Source: an uncultured virus (IMG/VR IMGVR_UViG_3300035180_003568)
Lineage: Duplodnaviria > Heunggongvirae > Uroviricota > Caudoviricetes
Length of the DNA stretch: 20,000 nucleotides
Virus record (IMG/VR): IMGVR_UViG_3300035180_003568
Strand: one strand, 5' to 3'
In this document: positions 4,384 through 17,963 of the stretch, piece by piece
How the letters are laid out: the number at the start of each line of letters is the position of its first letter
Position numbering within the stretch: the first letter of the stretch is position 1
Notes under the pieces: generated by a model
What the model saw: the letters and a program-made list of their open reading frames with translations, nothing else
Told to the model about the DNA's origin: nothing
Database searches by the model: none
Position numbers and translations under genes: made by a program

Positions 4384-5223
4384 TTAAAGAATCTCATCGT
4401 GGTAAGGATATTCATCCTCACACTCTCCGCTGCAATCCTCATCGCCACAATATTGACAGAAAGTCTCGTCTTCTTCCTCGTCTTTAGGAAAGTCAGTATA
4501 GCGAAGGCTATCATCAGATGCCCTATCTACTACACCAAGTACTTTATATCTACAGGTCCTCATCTTTGCCTGATTGTAGTCAACGGGCACCGCAACAACA
4601 TCAGCCGGATCAACCTCAACCTCTAACATAACGCCACCACCGTAGAAATTGGCAGCATAATCCCAGTTAGCTACATGTAAACCATTGCTGCATGTCTGGT
4701 TTGGGTCCTCATTCACCTGATTGCGAGGCATCTCGACCACTTTGCCAGGCGAGTTATCAAATGTTCCAGAATGGACATCCTTAAAATCCTCACGTACCTT
4801 TTTATACGCGATGAAATTACCACTCTCAGTAATTGGGTGATCATTCTTCTCCAAGAATTGGAAGAGCTGATTTACAGAGCGATATGATGGATTTTTTTGT
4901 AACTTCTCAGCGAACCTAACCAAAGGTTCGTATGGAAGACCTTCGTTTGAAAACTTCAAAATCTTATTGCCAAGAACCTCTGGGGCGGGCGTTCCATTTA
5001 CCAAAATCTGACCATCACGCACCATGAATGCGCCATCAGAATACTTCTCAATCCTCTTGGAAGTTGAGATGAGCATCGGGATTTCGTCCATCCGCTTCTC
5101 TTTAAGAGCCTTGATTAACTTATTGGCTAACTCGCCCGTTCTAGCAACGATATGAGTCTGCCCTTCATAATTGACTGTGATATTGTGGTCTGTGACTAAC
5201 CAATTAACTTTTTTCTCTGACAT
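4384..5223 (-). CDS. rIIB: rIIB-like protector from prophage-induced early lysis
   Basis: NPS.RS..QL..FLE....PITESG.FIAYKKV, DNSPG.VVEMPR, CS.GLHV and DVVAVP.DYN..KMR.C motifs; directly after rIIA; AAGGAG SD supports start at 5223. Confidence 0.93.
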   Translation of the reverse strand: MSEKKVNWLVTDHNITVNYEGQTHIVARTGELANKLIKALKEKRMDEIPMLISTSKRIEKYSDGAFMVRDGQILVNGTPAPEVLGNKILKFSNEGLPYEPLVRFAEKLQKNPSYRSVNQLFQFLEKNDHPITESGNFIAYKKVREDFKDVHSGTFDNSPGKVVEMPRNQVNEDPNQTCSNGLHVANWDYAANFYGGGVMLEVEVDPADVVAVPVDYNQAKMRTCRYKVLGVVDRASDDSLRYTDFPKDEEEDETFCQYCGDEDCSGECEDEYPYHDEIL

Positions 5224-5247
5224 CTGTCTCTCCTTCATTAAATCTTA

Positions 5248-7320
5248 TTAAGCCTTATCAATTAAGTTTACATATTGTGCAATACTGCTACATAGTTGTT
5301 CGTAATTATACACACTAATTGCACTTAACAGCGGATATTTTTCATCAATCTTTTTTTGGAGTTTTGGTAGGTTTCTATCTGGATTGGAATTTTCATAATC
5401 CGCCATATCCTTTTTTGAAATCTCTCCAGCTACTAATTCATATAAATCTAACATCGAGTCATGCTGTTGAGCGAGTTTACTTATAGTGTTATGTAATTCA
5501 ATCTTTTTAAGGAAGAGTGAATTCTTATCTTCAATCATTGGAGATAGTTTTTTTGCTACAGAAATTAATCTGGCTTCAACATAATGACTCTGTGTCGCTG
5601 CAAACTTTATCTCGACAAAATTCGTTTTCTTGGCATCAGAAAAATTCTCTTTTAGAAAATCTTCTAAATTGCCAAAATCCTCGGCAATCCTATCGTCTGA
5701 AATGTCGCTATCAATGCCATAAAATGAAACTTTGGGATGAAGTTCTTGTAATCCCTTAAATATATGTGCAGAAATAAGTTTCTTGTTTTCCAAGATGGCA
5801 CTTCTATTGGCAGAAGCGTCCCTGGTTAGTTTGCAAAGAATTTTGTCCTGAGAATCTACGTCAATTGACGAATATGATACCTGCCTAAAAGCCGCAGCCT
5901 TGGGATCAAACTTGAAGACTAATAGTCTGGAAGTTGCTGGAGTATAATTACGAGCAGTCGCCGTTGCAACGGATGACAGTAGCTTATATCCCATTTTATC
6001 AAAATGGTACTTCTTTTTCAAGACATCTAAGGTTACCTTGTCATTTGCGCAAACCACCTGAACAGATGTTAAATTTGAATCTGTATCGAAAATCTTTCGC
6101 ACATGCTTAGGTGTTGGTTCCTTAAGAGGAAGGTCATTGAAATATAGCGCGGAATTATTTTGGAAAACTAAATGGTTATTCAGTCCCCTCCTAATCTTAT
6201 TAGAATCATATCCTTTACCACGGGGATAGCCTCCTTTCTGGAAGTAATACACGGAACAATCCACAGAATCGTGTCGATTACGAAGCTCAATTCCTTGCCA
6301 AGTCAATTTGCCCAAAAATGTAATATTACTAAAGCTATTGGTAAGCTCGGACTGGAAGAAGATATTTGCTGACCATAGATCAGGCAGGGATGCTATTTTA
6401 TCTTCCACACGTTTCTTAAGTTCTTTTACAACTAATTCAATTCGTTTAGAAATCTTTGCCTGCGTCGGCTTATCAAGGTAAACCGCTTCACGGCTGGCTG
6501 AAAGACTCAATTCCCCAATACCAAAGTAAAGATACAAATTACCATAAAGCGCGCCGATCACGGCGCTGTCAGCATAGGTCTTGAGAGCGTTTAGGTCAAC
6601 GGGATACTCAATCCCGTCAATAATAATCTTAACAGTGCGGTTATAATCGTTAGACGCCATGACCGCCCAGCCAGTACCCGAGATGGTTTTCGTAGGAGTT
6701 TTATAGTCAAATTTCCCGCCTCGAATAATAGGAAGAACATCCCAGTGGCGGGTTGCAAACTCTGTCCATTCCGCAAAATTACGGAAATCCGCAGGTTTGA
6801 CAGGAACGATAATCTCGGTCCCGTTTTTCTCGGTGGTTGGAGACTCTCCAAGAGTCATTAGTTTGCCGACCTTTGTCTCATCAATTACGCAAGCGTAATT
6901 GTACTCAATGCCATTAAATACTGTCTTAATAGTAAATGTATCGCTATACGAGAATGGAGTTTTAGCACCCAATCCAAAACCTCCGGTCTGGATATTGTCC
7001 TCTCTCTTGGTACTCGCTGTATACTTAATAAAAATGTTAGACATGCGATCGGGACTAATCCCCGGACCAAAATCTCTGACTTTATAGAAAGGCTCTAGAG
7101 CGTTTGGGATAGTGATTTCCACCGGAACATCTTCCATTCCGACTTCTCGATGCGCGTCGCGCGCATTACACGAAATTTCTCGGCAAATAGCGAGAATGGG
7201 ATTTGAATACATCTTATTGCGTAAGATGTCGAAAATCATTCCCTGATCTTGAATTGAGAAGAACTGCTCCTGCAACTCACCCGATGTTTCTACTGTAGGA
7301 CGAATATCACTAAATTTCAT
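5248..7320 (-). CDS. rIIA: rIIA-like protein with N-terminal GHKL/HATPase domain
   Basis: MYSNPILAICREI.CNA.DAH, VRDFGPGIS, STK...N..TGGFGLGAK.PF.Y and SREA motifs. Confidence 0.93.
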   Translation of the reverse strand: MKFSDIRPTVETSGELQEQFFSIQDQGMIFDILRNKMYSNPILAICREISCNARDAHREVGMEDVPVEITIPNALEPFYKVRDFGPGISPDRMSNIFIKYTASTKREDNIQTGGFGLGAKTPFSYSDTFTIKTVFNGIEYNYACVIDETKVGKLMTLGESPTTEKNGTEIIVPVKPADFRNFAEWTEFATRHWDVLPIIRGGKFDYKTPTKTISGTGWAVMASNDYNRTVKIIIDGIEYPVDLNALKTYADSAVIGALYGNLYLYFGIGELSLSASREAVYLDKPTQAKISKRIELVVKELKKRVEDKIASLPDLWSANIFFQSELTNSFSNITFLGKLTWQGIELRNRHDSVDCSVYYFQKGGYPRGKGYDSNKIRRGLNNHLVFQNNSALYFNDLPLKEPTPKHVRKIFDTDSNLTSVQVVCANDKVTLDVLKKKYHFDKMGYKLLSSVATATARNYTPATSRLLVFKFDPKAAAFRQVSYSSIDVDSQDKILCKLTRDASANRSAILENKKLISAHIFKGLQELHPKVSFYGIDSDISDDRIAEDFGNLEDFLKENFSDAKKTNFVEIKFAATQSHYVEARLISVAKKLSPMIEDKNSLFLKKIELHNTISKLAQQHDSMLDLYELVAGEISKKDMADYENSNPDRNLPKLQKKIDEKYPLLSAISVYNYEQLCSSIAQYVNLIDKA

Positions 7321-12950: not shown

Positions 12951-13478
12951 TCACTTAGGCGATATGGTCATATGTATGATTTTTCCTTCCATTTGGATTT
13001 GGGATACTTTTGGAGATAATTTTGATAATTGTTCAATAACAATTTGAAGTTTTTCTTTTGCCAGCTCTGGATGAGTAATTTCTCTCCCATAATGTTTAAT
13101 GGTAAATTTAACGTGATTACCATCCTCTAAAAATCCTCTGGCTTGAGAAATTTTGTGATTCAAATCATGAATATCAATATTTGGTCTAAATCTAATTTCT
13201 TTAATTTCAATCTGCTTTAAATTCTCTTTAATTTCAGAAAGCCTTTTCTTTTCATTATACTTAAACTTTCCGTAATCTATAATCTTACAAATAGGCGGTG
13301 AGACTTTCGCATTAATTTCAACCAAATCCAGCCCAGCATCTTTTGCCATTTGCAATGCTTGATGAGTTAACATCACGCCGGGCGATGAGCCATCTTCTAA
13401 TACCACTCTAACTTGCGGTACTTTAATTTGCCAATTAATACGAATGCGATTTTGAATGTTAGGTGTTTTCTCTTGCAT
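12951..13478 (-). CDS. infC: Translation initiation factor IF-3
   Basis: RIN..I....VRVV, GLDLVEI....PPICKIIDYGKFKY, KEIRFRP.ID.HD, FLE.G..VK, GRE..H, EGK.I.M...P. Confidence 0.97.
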   Translation of the reverse strand: MQEKTPNIQNRIRINWQIKVPQVRVVLEDGSSPGVMLTHQALQMAKDAGLDLVEINAKVSPPICKIIDYGKFKYNEKKRLSEIKENLKQIEIKEIRFRPNIDIHDLNHKISQARGFLEDGNHVKFTIKHYGREITHPELAKEKLQIVIEQLSKLSPKVSQIQMEGKIIHMTISPK

Positions 13479-13985: not shown

Positions 13986-14423
13986 TTAAAACTTAATTCC
14001 CTGATAATAATTAAACTGTTTTGCAGTTTTTCTTTTATGACAGTTAGAGCATCTAACGTCGCATTTTTGAATTTCATCAACTAATTTTTCAAAAGAGGAT
14101 GTTATCATATGGCTTATGTTATTTTCCTTATCGCCACGATGATCAAACTCTAATACGACTGGATCCTTTTCACCACAATCAATACATGGGTGTTCTTTTA
14201 GAAAATCTATTGTATATTGTAGGTTTCTTAACCTATAATCGGCATTATGTTTTTTTGCCTTATCTTTGTAATAATCTTTGCGTTCCAAATAGTGTTCTTT
14301 ATGAAACTCAGATATACAGATTTTACAATGGTTTTGATATCCGTCTTTAGTGCCCTTTTTCTTATTGAATGATTTTTCTAATGGTGGATAATAAATATTG
14401 TTGCATTTAGTACATGTTTTCAT
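13986..14423 (-). CDS. HNH endonuclease with N-terminal zinc finger
   Basis: CTKC...CKIC; CIDCGEKDPVVLEFDH...CDVRCSNCH. Confidence 0.9.
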   Translation of the reverse strand: MKTCTKCNNIYYPPLEKSFNKKKGTKDGYQNHCKICISEFHKEHYLERKDYYKDKAKKHNADYRLRNLQYTIDFLKEHPCIDCGEKDPVVLEFDHRGDKENNISHMITSSFEKLVDEIQKCDVRCSNCHKRKTAKQFNYYQGIKF

Positions 14424-14429
14424 GTACTA

Positions 14430-14458
14430 GATACGAAAGTATTGATAGGTTTCGTATC
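14430..14458. repeat. 9-bp inverted repeat upstream of the HNH gene
   Basis: GATACGAAA-N11-TTTCGTATC fills the intergenic gap and ends 6 nt before the HNH ATG. Confidence 0.55.
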
Positions 14459-14460
14459 AA

Positions 14461-14682
14461 TTAATTTGATCTCTTTATAATTTCATTTTCAATTAATGAT
14501 TTACATTCTTCAATTTCTGGCAAGCGCTCTTTAAAAAAATTAGAATTTTGCTTTTCTTTTTGCAATTCAATTATTTGATCTTTCATAGATAAAAGAGATT
14601 TAAAGCTTAATAGCATGTCACGTAAATCATTAGTTGATAATGTGGAAATTTCTTTTATAAGTTTGTTTTTATTAATTATCAT
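14461..14682 (-). CDS. Hypothetical protein, 73 aa
   Basis: ORF; ATG 1 nt after a tRNA CCA. Confidence 0.65.
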   Translation of the reverse strand: MIINKNKLIKEISTLSTNDLRDMLLSFKSLLSMKDQIIELQKEKQNSNFFKERLPEIEECKSLIENEIIKRSN

Positions 14683-14683
14683 G

Positions 14684-14756
14684 TGGCACCCCTAGGAAGA
14701 GTTGAACTTCCGCAATCGAGTTTCGTAGACTCAACGCCAGGTCCGCTGGTAGGGGC
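14684..14756 (-). tRNA. tRNA-Arg(ACG), non-canonical fold
   Basis: GCCCCTA/TAGGGGT acceptor, CTACGAA loop, GGAAG-TTCAACT-CTTCC T arm, GCCA end. Confidence 0.85.
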
Positions 14757-14765
14757 GTGCTAATT

Positions 14766-14852
14766 TGGAGTCCCTAGTAGGAGTTGAACCTACAATGAGC
14801 TTTCGCTCCCTGGTTTCGTAGACCAGTGCCATATCCATTTGACGATATGGAC
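14766..14852 (-). tRNA. tRNA with ACG (Arg) anticodon and long variable arm
   Basis: CTGGT-CTACGAA-ACCAG, GAGC-GAAA-GCTC variable hairpin, GTAGG-TTCAACT-CCTAC, TCCA end. Confidence 0.85.
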
Positions 14853-14857
14853 AAGTT

Positions 14858-14929
14858 TGGCACCCCATTCAGGAATCGAACCCGAGCGGCAAGTTTAGAA
14901 GACTCGCCTGTAGATCCACTACATGGGGC
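14858..14929 (-). tRNA. tRNA-Arg(TCT), non-canonical fold
   Basis: GCCCCAT/ATGGGGT acceptor, CTTCTAA loop, TCGGG-TTCGATT-CCTGA, GCCA end. Confidence 0.85.
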
Positions 14930-14935
14930 GTATTG

Positions 14936-15067
14936 TTATTTTTTCGTTACTATTTTAGATACGATCAACTCTGGGTACCAGTATGATAAAAATAAAATGT
15001 TTCCATCTTTATCTAATTGGACTTTATATCCAGTTTTAATCAAATCTTGAATTTCTTTATTATTCAT
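14936..15067 (-). CDS. Small hypothetical protein, 43 aa (MNNKEIQDLIKTGYKVQLDKDGNILFLSYWYPELIVSKIVTKK)
   Basis: ORF fills the tRNA spacer; ATG directly follows the tRNA-Glu CCA. Confidence 0.55.
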   Translation of the reverse strand: MNNKEIQDLIKTGYKVQLDKDGNILFLSYWYPELIVSKIVTKK

Positions 15068-15142
15068 TGGCGATCCCAGCGGGAATCGAACCCGCGTTAC
15101 GAAATTGAGAGTCTCGCTTCCTAGCCGCTAGAAGATGGGACC
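15068..15142 (-). tRNA. tRNA-Glu(CTC)
   Basis: GGTCCCA/TGGGATC acceptor, CTCTCAA loop, GCGGG-TTCGATT-CCCGC, GCCA. Confidence 0.92.
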
Positions 15143-15162
15143 AATATATTTATAACTGTTTA

Positions 15163-15588
15163 TTACCAGTCTTTGTTGTCAAATTTTACTCTAACTACAT
15201 TAGCTTCAAATTTTTCCGGAGTAACTTCTACTGAAACTTTCTGAATTGCACTAACTGGTTGCCGAGTATCGGCGTCACTAATTTTGACATCAGCGGAAGT
15301 TACTGATGTTACCTTTCTTTGATCGGTAGTAATACGAATGTTCTTTTCAAATGTTTTAGAAACATCCGACTTAAAACCATTCTCCTTTGGAGAATCCATT
15401 AAACTAACCGTAGCCTTACAGGCTATCTCTACTGGAACATTAAAAAGATGTACGTGAAGACTTGTTAAATATCCTTCGGCGTCGGCTTCCCAAGATAAAC
15501 TTTGAATGCCATGAACCATCTCGCCAGTATCTTCGTCAATTAACTTGGTTCCTACAGAAGTTCCATCAGAAATAAGTTTGAGTTTCAT
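15163..15588 (-). CDS. Hypothetical protein with two internal repeats
   Basis: TKLIDEDTGEMVHGIQSLSWE versus VKISDADTRQPVSAIQKVSVE. Confidence 0.75.
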   Translation of the reverse strand: MKLKLISDGTSVGTKLIDEDTGEMVHGIQSLSWEADAEGYLTSLHVHLFNVPVEIACKATVSLMDSPKENGFKSDVSKTFEKNIRITTDQRKVTSVTSADVKISDADTRQPVSAIQKVSVEVTPEKFEANVVRVKFDNKDW

Positions 15589-15611
15589 AATAAGTAATAT
15601 ATCAAATGATT

Positions 15612-15678
15612 TGGTGATTTGTACGGGAGTCGAACCCGTGCTGAAAGTCCAGAGGACTAACCGCTAACCTAACAGACC
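15612..15678 (-). pseudogene. tRNA-Glu(TTC) pseudogene lacking the 3' strand of the anticodon stem
   Basis: 67 nt; acceptor, D and T arms and CCA present; TCTGGA-CTTTCAG joins directly to the T arm. Confidence 0.75.
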
Positions 15679-15681
15679 ATT

Positions 15682-15758
15682 TGGTGATCCCAGTGGGGGT
15701 CGAACCCAACACCGCCTGGTTGAAAGCCAGGAATTCAGAGCCGCTAAACTATGGGACC
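15682..15758 (-). tRNA. tRNA-Glu(TTC)
   Basis: CCTGG-CTTTCAA-CCAGG; GGTCCCA/TGGGATC; ACCA; imperfect T stem. Confidence 0.88.
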
Positions 15759-15863
15759 AGGGTTGCGATTATTTATTCAGGCTAACGCAATTTAATGACT
15801 GAAAGGTCAATTCCCTGAAGTCTAATATTTACGCCGGAAAGACTAACCGATTGCATCTTAACT
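15759..15863 (-). ncRNA. Candidate structured spacer RNA (copy A)
   Basis: Multi-stem fold; shares CAATCRG(T)TAGTCT with 17711..17795; strand not certain. Confidence 0.4.
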
Positions 15864-15941
15864 TGGGGTGATGTACGAGAATCGAACTCGTCAAAGAGTG
15901 TTTCACAGACACCCGGGGTCAACCTGCTCCCTCACATCACC
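15864..15941 (-). tRNA. tRNA-His(GTG)
   Basis: Encoded G-1:C73 pair, CTGTGAA loop, ACGAG-TTCGATT-CTCGT, CCA. Confidence 0.92.
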
Positions 15942-16004
15942 ATATGGCAATATAATTGTCTGATTATTAGTATATCTTTTATATATCCTCAAGTTTGGAG
16001 TTTT

Positions 16005-16517
16005 ATGACTACACGTAATACAGAAGAATTATTAACTTTAGCCACAGAATTCGAAGATCAAGCAGCTAACTTTGTTATTAAAAAAGCAAAGAAAGACTCA
16101 GCGGACTCAAAGGCTAAAGTTCGTAATCGTGGAAAAGTTGTTTTTCCTGCCGAAAGCTCCAATGTTAAGGACAACAAAGATCATTTTCCTATTAATGATG
16201 CTGATCAAGCCAGAAACGCTCTCGCCAGAGCCGGTCAATATTCAAGCGTACCTTCTTGGTACAATGGCTCATTGGAAAGCCTAAAAAGCGCCATTAGTCG
16301 CGCCGTTCACAAACATTATCCTTCAATTGGTAAGGAAAAGAAATCATCTTTTATGAGCATGTTAGCCAAAGAAGCCGGTCATAAATTCGAGGCTCCCCGT
16401 ATTGTTCAACTATATAATATGCTAAAATCTGAACCAAATGAAGAAGACAGAAAAGAAATTAAAAAGTGGATTGAAGAAGAACAGGCGAGATTAGACAAAC
16501 TTCGCTCTAAGAAATAA
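16005..16517 (+). CDS. Hypothetical protein with DUF6582-like motif
   Basis: HFPINDADQARNALARAGQ; GGAG SD; only intact plus-strand gene. Confidence 0.75.
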   Translation: MTTRNTEELLTLATEFEDQAANFVIKKAKKDSADSKAKVRNRGKVVFPAESSNVKDNKDHFPINDADQARNALARAGQYSSVPSWYNGSLESLKSAISRAVHKHYPSIGKEKKSSFMSMLAKEAGHKFEAPRIVQLYNMLKSEPNEEDRKEIKKWIEEEQARLDKLRSKK

Positions 16518-16979
16518 ATCTTCTAATACATAAGTGGGATTGATCTTCTTAATATCTTCCTGAGAAGGTTTTGTATCGTAGAAACACACATATCCTTCTT
16601 CCGGATATTCTTTTTCATATACATACCAACCGGTTCCTTCTGGACCATTCACGGTATGTAATGCTATCACTTCTATAGTATCCATATTTTCTTCCGAATT
16701 AGCTATCTCAGCTAAAACCTCTCCATGACAATCTTGCGGGGAACACCAACAACCTAAAATCTTTCCTTTTAACTCCGTTTTAGCGGCTTCTAGCAACCAA
16801 GGCGTTGCCATTATGTAATTTCTAAAACATTGAATGGCTTCTTCGCGAGTCTCTACAATATGCTCGGCAGCCGTCCCACCCCGATGAGTAAAAGGATTGC
16901 CCCATTTAGAAGGTCTTCCTATATAGACATCATAATGATCTTTTTTACAATGAACAACAAATTTTTTATATTCGGTCAT
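16491..16979 (-). CDS. DUF4326 domain protein
   Basis: VYIGRPSKWGNPF...LKGKILGCWC.P..CHGEVL. Confidence 0.9.
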   Translation of the reverse strand: MTEYKKFVVHCKKDHYDVYIGRPSKWGNPFTHRGGTAAEHIVETREEAIQCFRNYIMATPWLLEAAKTELKGKILGCWCSPQDCHGEVLAEIANSEENMDTIEVIALHTVNGPEGTGWYVYEKEYPEEGYVCFYDTKPSQEDIKKINPTYVLEDLFLRAKFV

Positions 16980-17158
16980 TTACTTTCTGGTTGTTCTCGA
17001 ATAACTATAGATTTGGTTGCGTGAATATAAATTTCTTCTTGCTCACCAGGACGCAATTCTTTATCAATCTCATATGCACCATCAGCAAAACGACCTATAG
17101 TAGTAACTATAGCAGTCTTAGTAGGATCTTCGTTTTTAATAACTATTCGCATGGTCAT
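16976..17158 (-). CDS. Hypothetical protein, 60 aa
   Basis: GGAG SD; ATGA coupling to the next gene. Confidence 0.7.
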   Translation of the reverse strand: MTMRIVIKNEDPTKTAIVTTIGRFADGAYEIDKELRPGEQEEIYIHATKSIVIREQPESK

Positions 17159-17227
17159 GATTTATCTCCAAATCATTTGGCGTTATCAATCAATATTTTC
17201 TGGGTCATTTCAACTTCATCGTCATCT

Positions 17228-17623
17228 TCATTGGTGTAAAATGATTACATCGGAATTTGTAATTGCATCAAGAGTCTCAAAAACTCTTCTATCCTCTTCC
17301 TCTTGAATGTCTTTTATTGCCAGCAACTTCATTTTCTTGAAAAGAAAGCGCTTCGCCCGCTTAACTAAAGATTCTGGTTTTCTTTTTCGCGGAGGCTTTG
17401 GGTGACATTTAGTGCAAAGAAACTCTAAATTGATTTGCCTATTATTAAGACGATTACCATTAATATGGTGGATATGAATACAATAAGTTATCTTGCATTA
17501 TGCGCAAGATTTAGCAATACCAGATTCAATCATCGCCCTACGTAAGCATGACGGATTTTCTAATTTGCCAGATAATCTATTGAATAGTAATATTTCTTTC
17601 CAATGAATCTTACTCTTCTTCAT
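17228..17623 (-). pseudogene. HNH endonuclease with in-frame TAA
   Basis: MKKSKIHWKEILL...LRRAMIESGIAKSCA*CKITYCIHIHHINGNRLNNRQINLEFLCTKCH...; TAA at 17500-17498 inside the CxxC. Confidence 0.85.
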
Positions 17624-17624
17624 A

Positions 17625-17708
17625 TGGTGTCAGAGGAGGGACTTGAACCCTCACGCCTCGCGGCACTGGCTTCTTAGACCAGCGTGGCTGCCATTACACC
17701 ACCCTGAC
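17625..17708 (-). tRNA. tRNA-Leu(AAG)
   Basis: CTGGT-CTAAGAA-GCCAG, long variable arm, A73, CCA. Confidence 0.9.
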
Positions 17709-17710
17709 AT

Positions 17711-17795
17711 AAACAATTGAGAATGAAAAGTCTTTACTCTTTTATTCCTAGCCTATCCGGGTGTAAAGATGAACCCTTTAGACTACTGATTGTTT
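17711..17795 (-). ncRNA. Candidate structured spacer RNA (copy B): three-way junction with kissing loops
   Basis: AAACAAT/ATTGTTT, TAGTCTA/TAGGCTA, GGGT/ACCC, GAAT-AAAAG/CTTTT-c-ATTC; loop segments TCTTTAC and GTAAAGA are complementary. Confidence 0.5.
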
Positions 17796-17882
17796 TGGTA
17801 CCAATGGTGGGACTCGAACCCACACGGGATTACTCCCAACAGCTTCTGAGGCTGCCGCGTCTACCATTTCCGCCACACTGGC
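17796..17882 (-). tRNA. tRNA-Leu(CAG)
   Basis: Canonical class II cloverleaf, CTCAGAA loop, ACCA. Confidence 0.93.
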
Positions 17883-17885
17883 ATT

Positions 17886-17963
17886 TGGCACTCGGAAAGG
17901 GTTCCGAACCCTTAAACCACAGATTCTAAGTCTGTGAGGTATGCCAATTCCCATCACCCGAGC
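17886..17963 (-). tRNA. tRNA with TAG (Leu) anticodon, short variable loop, G73
   Basis: ACAGA-CTTAGAA-TCTGT, 5-nt variable loop, AAGGG-TTCGGAA-CCCTT, GCCA. Confidence 0.85.

Follow-up and report, generated by a model that had tools for sequence, protein, structure and literature searches.

The transfer RNA (tRNA) cluster in the 20,000-nucleotide stretch of uncultured-virus DNA analysed here (IMG/VR record IMGVR_UViG_3300035180_003568; hereafter the window) raises the question of how two genes with the appearance of arginine tRNAs can dispense with the nucleotides that join the acceptor stem to the D stem, and whether their products might still act in translation. Few features of cytoplasmic-type tRNAs are as conserved as U8 and the two-nucleotide (nt) linker between acceptor and D stem, the known exceptions being tRNAPyl and the tRNAs of animal mitochondria. 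Both genes are encoded on the minus strand and are referred to as gene A, a compact tRNA-Arg(UCU) (14858..14929; 69 nt plus an encoded CCA), and gene B, a compact tRNA-Arg(ACG) (14684..14756; 70 nt plus an encoded CCA). As outlined below, they belong to a compact-core tRNA-Arg family that is widespread in the tRNA clusters of large phages and occurs sporadically in bacterial tRNA arrays and, judged from their sequence features, they probably are working elongator tRNA-Arg isoacceptors charged by the host arginyl-tRNA synthetase (ArgRS).

In gene A, which was recognised from the sequence itself, by RNAfold, by ARAGORN and by the covariance model R1 described below, the 5' strand of the acceptor stem (GCCCCAT, 14929-14923) directly abuts the D stem-loop (14922-14910; stem GTAG/CTAC, loop TGGAT), and a single linker base (A, 14909) leads to an anticodon arm (14908-14888) in which seven pairs (GGCGAGT/ACTTGCC, one of them G.U) close the loop CTTCTAA with the anticodon at 14899-14897. 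The variable region GC (14887-14886), the T arm TCGGG-TTCGATT-CCTGA (14885-14869), the 3' acceptor strand ATGGGGT (14868-14862), G73 (14861) and CCA (14860-14858) complete the molecule. Gene B, recognised from the sequence, by RNAfold and by R1, follows the same plan, with the 5' acceptor strand GCCCCTA (14756-14750), a D stem-loop of stem CCAG/CTGG and loop CGGAC (14749-14737), the linker base C (14736), an anticodon arm of seven pairs (GTTGAGT/ACTCGAT, two of them G.U; 14735-14715) closing the loop CTACGAA with the anticodon at 14726-14724, the variable region TGC (14714-14712), the T arm GGAAG-TTCAACT-CTTCC (14711-14695), the 3' acceptor strand TAGGGGT (14694-14688), G73 (14687) and CCA (14686-14684). 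Common to both are a 7-base-pair (bp) acceptor stem with G1.U72, the complete lack of nucleotides 8 and 9, a 4-bp D stem, a 5-nt NGGAN D loop in which the GG is retained, one linker base, a 7-nt anticodon loop with U33, a 5-bp T stem and a 7-nt T loop with TTCRA.

An earlier note, made from the sequence alone, had drawn both genes as tRNA-Arg without U8/N9 and with a 7-bp anticodon stem, and the sequence as well as RNAfold match these drawings exactly, on the minus strand. The cloverleaf is the unconstrained minimum-energy structure of either gene, with -28.3 kcal/mol for gene A (z = -2.94; 1 of 200 shuffles as good) and -26.1 kcal/mol for gene B (z = -2.29; 5 of 200), and parses with one or two linker nucleotides never outscore the zero-linker parse. 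Standard tools performed as poorly as the note had expected: ARAGORN reports gene A, as Arg(tct) with its anticodon at position 31, but not gene B, while the Rfam tRNA model (RF00005) gives gene A 26.0 bits, which is below its gathering score of 29 bits, and finds no match to gene B at E <= 10 in a search of 401 bases. An eighth acceptor pair, C-1/G73, would be possible in both genes, but was rejected since base -1 is mostly T or C in the relatives regardless of base 73.

A first pattern built from the features common to genes A and B detected eight phage contigs, all with an Arg(UCU) gene of the same layout and with D stems that differ in sequence and yet are fully paired. A looser pattern then required a sequence to begin with GCCCC, to have GGA at positions 13-15, to place an NCK anticodon within a CT...AA loop and to contain TTCRA; no pairing was demanded in either the D stem or the anticodon stem, and 73 loci in the viral collection matched. 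When the window and the loci of the first pattern were added, the total was 62 distinct sequences, of which 58 have an intact acceptor and T stem (at least six of seven and four of five pairs, respectively); in 54 of these 58 the best parse has no acceptor-D linker, and of the other four, inspected by eye, three can be drawn with a zero and one with a 1-nt linker. In bacterial and archaeal genomes the same pattern yielded at least 120 loci (121 matches), and among the matches listed 18 are tRNA-like (16 distinct), 17 of them with a zero linker. The set of distinct relatives, including the window, therefore amounts to at least 74 sequences, i.e., 56 from phage contigs, at least 16 from bacterial tRNA arrays and the two window genes. 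Its anticodon is an arginine one in 72 of 74 members (the pattern allowed eight triplets, six of them Arg), CCA is encoded in 45 of 74, the anticodon loops are of the ordinary CU-NNN-AA kind, and the D loop measures 4-7 nt and keeps G18, G19 and A20. Since GCCCC, GGA, the anticodon class and TTCRA were demanded by the pattern, their constancy within the set is not evidence, and this bias is inherited by R1, a covariance model made from 25 gapless 69-nt members with the zero-linker structure, with gene A but not gene B among the training sequences. R1 scores gene A at 79.1 bits (E = 1.4e-16) and gene B at 68.2 bits (E = 4.8e-14), as compared to at most 34.2 bits for the other tRNAs of the window.

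The pairing itself was assessed on the 46 distinct sequences with equal spacing between GGA and the anticodon loop, which were aligned by position only and with nothing fitted to structure. The four D-stem pairs are formed in 46, 45, 46 and 40 of these 46 sequences, with several pair types each, and the anticodon-stem pairs, counted from the loop outward, in 44, 46, 45, 41, 36, 41 and 26. Taken together, the drawn pairs are present in 456 of 506 cells (90%), whereas control partners shifted by one or two positions reach 30-40%. The sixth anticodon-stem pair, formed in 41 sequences as against a shuffle mean of 21.4, is a trait of the family, and the seventh (26 against 16.8; 15 of 10,000 shuffles as high) is enriched but optional, so that the 7-bp stem of the earlier note holds for both window genes and not for the family as a whole. 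In the 25 gapless members, 95.1% of the cells are paired in comparison to 63.8% in shuffles, the covariation score is 0.851 as against 0.213 (none of 500 shuffles as high), both-side changes occur at four of four D-stem and seven of seven anticodon-stem pairs, and pairing reaches 99.4% in the acceptor helix and 100% in the T helix. That the stems differ and keep pairing, which the note had taken as a sign of selection rather than decay, is thus borne out well beyond the two window genes, and instead of homologues with a canonical U8-N9 connector and no covariation in the extra pairs, the collected relatives for the most part lack the linker, and their D stem and six of the anticodon-stem pairs covary strongly. 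Accordingly, the fold of genes A and B is very likely real and maintained by selection.

The arrangement suggests where the missing nucleotides might have gone. In all zero-linker members 8 nt separate the 3' strand of the D stem from the anticodon loop, and these are divided into one linker base and seven pairs (genes A and B), two and six (many relatives) or three and five (one case). The sum of acceptor-D linker, D-anticodon linker and anticodon-stem pairs likewise equals eight in canonical tRNAs (2 + 1 + 5), in intermediate forms (1 + 1 + 6) and in the compact family, and because the sum is the same in all three the idea of length compensation gains support. The two nucleotides lost at the acceptor/D junction would then reappear as two extra layers between D stem and anticodon loop, and the distance from the elbow to the anticodon of a normal L-shape would thereby be kept, as in tRNAPyl and in mitochondrial tRNA-Ser(UCN). 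Intermediate forms are found close at hand: two phage loci (L002 and L003) share the gene order of the window, with Leu genes, His and Glu followed by Arg(UCU) and two Arg(ACG) genes, and in both of them the Arg(ACG) directly after the compact Arg(UCU) has a 1-nt linker (T), a D loop of 6-7 nt and the 1 + 6 division. The earlier note had regarded the window genes as a more extreme form of a known compensation; the invariant sum of eight fits such a trade, but a zero linker already exists in the tRNAPyl of Candidatus Methanomethylophilus alvus, and therefore the junction itself is not more extreme.

In line with a proposal of the earlier note, the covariance model was also searched in phage genomes, where it detected compact Arg genes in a 213-kb phage record rated 100% complete (G004) and in the cultured Myxococcus phage Mx1 (OR576727.2). 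The former encodes compact Arg(UCG), Arg(ACG) and Arg(UCU) genes, two of which begin with GCCCT or ACCCT and were thus beyond the reach of the pattern, as well as a canonical-like Arg(CCU) gene, resulting in a non-redundant arginine set, and nothing unusual is seen in its Ile, Phe, Asn, Glu, Asp, Met, Gly and Pro genes. Mx1 carries three compact genes in tandem at 51522-51736, with R1 scores of 60-64 bits, which ARAGORN reads as Arg(ACG), Arg(CCG) and Arg(CCU) with the anticodons at positions 30-31. Nothing is annotated at 51522-51736 in the feature table of the record, where none of the 22 annotated tRNAs is an Arg tRNA, and the genome announcement, in its available text, gives 22 tRNA genes and does not discuss arginine (PMC10720576). 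A further unannotated stretch of Mx1 (about 52052-52413 of the record; 1886-1955, 2095-2171 and 2172-2247 of locus L243) contains, according to ARAGORN, a Met(CAU) gene whose anticodon is at position 30, a second Met and Val(UAC).

The bacterial relatives reside in arrays, and 14 of the 17 loci scanned by ARAGORN are clusters of 4-13 tRNA genes within about 2 kb, located in genomes of Myxococcota, Planctomycetota and others, most of them metagenome-assembled. In five carrier genomes strong R1 matches occur only inside tRNA arrays, and in one bacterial family a match was found in 3 of 41 genomes, two of the three being already known from the pattern scan; in these searches about 124 first-look candidates were scored per genome, and their sensitivity may be weak. 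One array, in a 3.66-Mb contig, is flanked by gap/pgk on one side and a serA-like gene on the other, and a prophage origin was rejected for this array, the one examined in this respect, as no phage family was found in 16 open reading frames (ORFs) scanned against Pfam. The compact tRNA-Arg genes of bacteria thus belong to sporadic, probably horizontally moving arrays and lie outside the core tRNA set. Genes of other isotypes in these arrays are also shortened, with the anticodons at positions 29-30 (L131 926-996; L149 391-459; L199 702-770; L137 321-388); Gly(GCC), Trp(CCA) and Cys(GCA) are among the examples, and in the array Gly(GCC) a 4-bp D stem with a 3-nt D loop directly follows the acceptor stem. 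Since shortened Gly, Trp and Cys genes occur there, compaction is not limited to arginine.

With respect to tRNAs already described, the closest known architecture is that of the M. alvus tRNAPyl, which is charged by a PylRS without N-terminal domain. Like genes A and B it has no nucleotides between acceptor and D stem, a small D loop (4 nt) and a short variable loop, and its anticodon stem of six or more pairs may carry an unpaired A, which is paralleled by an internal A/A in several of the window relatives (PMC7609411, PMC10810272). However, the anticodon of tRNAPyl is CUA, its synthetase is PylRS and its hosts are methanogenic archaea, and with their UCU and ACG anticodons genes A and B are not tRNAPyl; the phage family instead combines arginine anticodons and ArgRS determinants with an occurrence in phages and bacterial arrays. 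The tRNAPyl of Methanosarcina and Desulfitobacterium and mammalian mitochondrial tRNA-Ser(UCN) combine a shortened linker and a small D loop with an anticodon stem of 6 bp and a variable loop of 3 nt, but the former lack G18 G19 and T-psi-C, while the phage family keeps GG and TTCRA in the same way as mitochondrial tRNA-Ser(UCN) keeps G18 G19 and T-psi-C (PMC7609411). Mitochondrial tRNA-Ser(UCN) and the Methanosarcina-type tRNAPyl have one linker nucleotide and six pairs in contrast to none and seven in the window genes, and isotype and setting differ as well; the second Arg(ACG) of the two syntenic loci has the 1-nt linker and 6-bp anticodon stem of these tRNAs. Genes A and B thus display the compact core of these tRNAs (at most one linker nucleotide, a D loop of 4-5 nt, at least six anticodon-stem pairs and a variable loop of about 3 nt), and their architecture is of the tRNAPyl and mitochondrial tRNA-Ser(UCN) kind, where kind denotes an architecture and not a lineage. 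From canonical bacterial and phage tRNA-Arg (RF00005), with which they share the 7-bp acceptor stem, the 5-bp T stem, the 7-nt loops, A20, C35, U/G36 and G73, they differ by the missing U8/N9, the 5-nt D loop, the 7-bp anticodon stem and the variable loop of 2-3 nt.

A precedent for non-canonical cloverleaves in the tRNA clusters of uncultured phages are the (8/4) tRNA-Ser and tRNA-His of Mukai et al. (PMC5389517); in these, however, it is the split between acceptor and T stem that is altered (8/4 or 9/3), they comprise Ser, His and allo-tRNAs, and tRNAArg is not mentioned in the main text of that paper. A full-text literature search, in which subscription journals lay mostly outside the range and supplements were not covered, returned no description of a phage tRNA-Arg without the 8/9 linker. 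The annotated tRNA-Arg(UCU) of the haloarchaeal virus HGTV-1 (NC_021328.1) is 82.7% identical to gene A over 51 nt, its D loop contains TGGA and its anticodon stem has seven pairs, but with an acceptor-D linker of about 3 nt and a 5-bp D stem it falls outside the sum-of-eight rule, and it was rejected as a member since it keeps the linker. It reaches only 39.4 bits with R1, after inserting those nucleotides. Among the 22 GenBank phage records matched by gene A in blastn, 18 from Gordonia (one inspected), one from Mycobacterium and one from Klebsiella were likewise rejected as relatives because the match spans only the region from the anticodon arm to the T arm; the inspected Gordonia match (R1 23.8 bits, partial) is not a full tRNA and is read as an attachment-site-like fragment.

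What might the two genes do? Both carry A directly after the D-loop GG (A20), C35, U36 or G36, G73 and C3-G70, and thus the bacterial arginine identity set, which consists of A20, C35, U/G36, A/G73 and, as a minor element, C3-G70 (PMC9976931), although C2-G71 stands in the window genes where the table of that paper has G2-C71. A20 is the main determinant for the E. coli ArgRS in spite of variation in the framework (PMC9976931). The ArgRS core domain PF00750 was found in none of five related phage records, amongst them one rated 100% complete and the complete Mx1 genome, as compared to 14 of 14 control genomes, and no synthetase-like ORF is present among the 18 window ORFs scanned. With the ArgRS determinants retained and the relatives yielding no phage ArgRS, it is most likely the host enzyme that would charge both tRNAs. 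The UCU anticodon of gene A would read AGA and AGG, and the ACG anticodon of gene B, after editing of A34 to inosine, CGU, CGC and CGA; this deamination is carried out by TadA, which needs only the anticodon arm. Arginine codons in 16 window ORFs (4245 codons; n = 191) are distributed as AGA 80, AGG 29, CGT 32, CGC 26, CGA 19 and CGG 5, and AGA together with CGU, CGC and CGA (80 + 77), i.e., codons read by UCU and ACG, account for 82%. A compact core would also be plausible on the ribosome by analogy with the M. alvus tRNAPyl, which lacks a base at the acceptor/D junction and is nevertheless a rigid L-shaped molecule active in translation (PMC10810272). Transcription, processing, charging and ribosomal use of genes A and B would follow from this reading.

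Several observations weigh against the compact genes as length-compensated, working tRNA-Arg. The compact ACG gene is redundant with an Arg(ACG) gene of canonical core both in the window and in the two syntenic loci, the discriminator base varies in the 74-member set (G 34, A 25, U 15), and part of the constancy of GCCCC, GGA and the NCK anticodon there stems from the pattern itself. In addition, the anticodon arm could become longer with seven pairs plus a linker, conservation of pair seven is lacking across the relatives, and several of them have an internal A/A mismatch in the anticodon stem (7 of 46 at pair 5).

Alternative explanations differ widely in how well they accommodate these data. 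The view of the genes as decaying pseudogenes or as canonical tRNAs misdrawn would be in line with the low scores from standard tools, but it is hardly credible in the face of compensatory changes in every stem over 25-46 distinct sequences, with pairing falling to 28-49% for shifted partners, of the failure of parses with one or two linker nucleotides to improve on either drawing, and of the identical sequence in contigs of three public DNA runs. Very improbable, too, is the need for a dedicated phage-encoded synthetase, which had been put forward in the earlier note: the core shape does depart from canonical tRNA-Arg, and the M. alvus PylRS recognises the missing base 8 as part of tRNAPyl identity (PMC10810272), but the detection of PF00750 in none of the five related phage records (two of them complete) and in all 14 controls, the lack of a synthetase-like sequence among the 18 scanned ORFs of the window and the retention of the ArgRS determinants in both genes, including A20 as the main one in E. 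coli (PMC9976931), argue against it. Another possibility is that the transcripts resemble tRNAs but do not serve translation, acting for instance as decoys for a host enzyme, regulators or processing signals, and are never charged with arginine. Scores below the curated tRNA threshold, the redundancy of the compact ACG with a canonical-core ACG (window, L002/L003) and the start of the next ORF (14682) one base past the CCA of gene B, which could double as a processing or translation signal, would all be compatible with such a role. It is nonetheless improbable, given that the ArgRS identity set, the U33 loops, TTCRA, the D-loop GG and, in 45 of 74 members, CCA are all kept, that the compact genes of G004 provide three of its four distinct arginine anticodons without overlap, and that Mx1 has no other annotated tRNA-Arg; the 72 arginine anticodons among 74 point in the same direction, weakly, as six of the eight triplets allowed by the pattern are Arg.

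A related proposal, raised in the earlier note as a possible evasion of host tRNA nucleases, keeps the genes as working arginine tRNAs and sees in the compaction a device of counter-defence, in which the core has been remodelled to hide the arginine supply of the phage from host factors that read or mark the body of canonical tRNA-Arg, e.g., nucleases of defence or toxin systems that cleave tRNAs, or enzymes with U8 as their target, while ArgRS would still charge the tRNAs, chiefly via A20 and C35. Members of the family are found only in phage tRNA clusters and in scattered bacterial arrays (3 of 41 genomes in one bacterial family), the escape of phage tRNAs from host tRNA nucleases is an established theme (PMC10264068, PMC12409363), and genes related to RNA repair or tRNAs are found near the clusters, namely an RlaP-type nucleotidyltransferase in the window and a peptidyl-tRNA hydrolase and a TROVE-domain protein in Mx1. 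However, the escape cases described in these two papers concern the anticodon loop and not the core, and the anticodon loops of the family are ordinary; no nuclease reading the core of tRNA-Arg was identified in this analysis, and the same compaction is found in a chromosomal array beside the housekeeping genes gap and pgk, with no obvious phage-defence context. A counter-defence function is therefore rather unlikely, and the reading of genes A and B as elongator tRNAs for arginine served by the host ArgRS is preferred.

The window is DNA of a large phage with a G + C content of about 37% and nearly all long ORFs on the minus strand, and it encodes rIIA (5248-7320), rIIB (4384-5238) and an IF3 homologue (12951-13478), in addition to HNH endonucleases and the RlaP-type nucleotidyltransferase (862-1989). 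An 801-base query from the window matched GenBank phages only at tRNA-Glu and retrieved no close cultured relative; its rIIA shares at most about 31% protein identity with cultured phages and 42%, over part of the protein only, with an uncultured 462-kb phage. Seven public runs contain part of the stretch, and no RNA run is listed among them. Three DNA runs from sediment or microbial mats have contigs with the same sequence (contigs of four DNA runs were compared), and the region 14400-14920 is identical in one run and partly covered in two others, without informative variation.

The minus-strand tRNA cluster extends over 14684-17963, where ARAGORN predicts eight genes and the Rfam tRNA model passes five. 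The interval 14684-14929 contains three genes and not two, since a tRNA-Arg(ACG) of canonical core (14766..14852, minus strand; 87 nt by ARAGORN, 45.1 bits with the Rfam tRNA model, 17.1 bits with R1) lies between genes A and B. This middle gene has U8, C9, an 8-nt D loop and a 5-bp anticodon stem, a 16-nt variable arm composed of G, a 4-bp hairpin (GAGC/GCTC) closed by GAAA and ATT, an A5/G68 mismatch, U73 and an encoded CCA, and it is outside the compact family. It resembles the long-arm (class II) tRNAs in shape, an unusual trait for an arginine tRNA; among five loci that share its anticodon arm, one viral contig locus (L252) is built in the same way, its GAAA-closed hairpin having 3 bp (GAC/GTC) with compensatory changes, and the other four have ordinary short variable loops.

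Other members of the cluster are also unusual. At 17886-17963 (minus strand) ARAGORN calls a tRNA-Leu(UAG) of 78 nt with a variable loop of about 3 nt, as opposed to the long arm of bacterial tRNA-Leu, which has an apparent 7-pair anticodon stem (TCACAGA/TCTGTGG), G1.U72, G73 and CCA and scores below the Rfam gathering threshold; the Leu(UAG) of the syntenic locus L002 is normal, with 89 nt. The tRNA-His(GUG) at 15864-15940 (minus strand) has G-1 and an apparent 6-pair anticodon stem (GGGTGT/ACACTC) and is likewise below the Rfam gathering score, and longer anticodon stems may be a theme of the tRNA set of this phage. Directly after tRNA-Glu(UUC) lies a 64-nt tRNA-like sequence (15615-15678, minus strand) with an acceptor stem (one C/A mismatch), D arm, T arm, CCA and an anticodon arm of about three pairs, which scores 16.1 bits with R1, is called neither by ARAGORN nor by Rfam and looks like a truncated tRNA-Glu copy. 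Downstream of gene B, the ATG of the ORF at 14461-14682 (minus strand) is located one base past the CCA, and given this position AGGGG, from the purine-rich 3' acceptor strand of gene B, sits at the expected ribosome-binding site (region 14680-14694). A DUF4326 protein is encoded within or beside the tRNA cluster both in the window (16491-16979, minus strand) and in the Mx1 record (55548-56306), where it is fused to a SLOG domain and near the TROVE-domain protein and the peptidyl-tRNA hydrolase, and such genes may be recurrently tied to phage tRNA clusters.

As gene B is missed by ARAGORN as well as by Rfam, and the three compact genes of Mx1 are missing from the GenBank feature table, standard annotation under-counts phage tRNA-Arg, and analyses of phage tRNA sets and of codon compensation are consequently biased for arginine. 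For the study of charging and function, a culturable system is available in Mx1 grown on Myxococcus xanthus. The length invariant amounts to a natural experiment in rebuilding the tRNA core and is of relevance for the engineering of orthogonal tRNAs, and if the counter-defence proposal were true, the compact cores would be natural tRNA scaffolds that may be orthogonal to host enzymes reading the tRNA body. By their 7-pair stem, the retention of GG and TTCRA (as in mitochondrial tRNA-Ser(UCN)), their arginine identity and their presence in phages of bacteria, genes A and B are different from the compact tRNAs known so far, and they represent a linker-free, clearly selected family of tRNAs for an ordinary amino acid.

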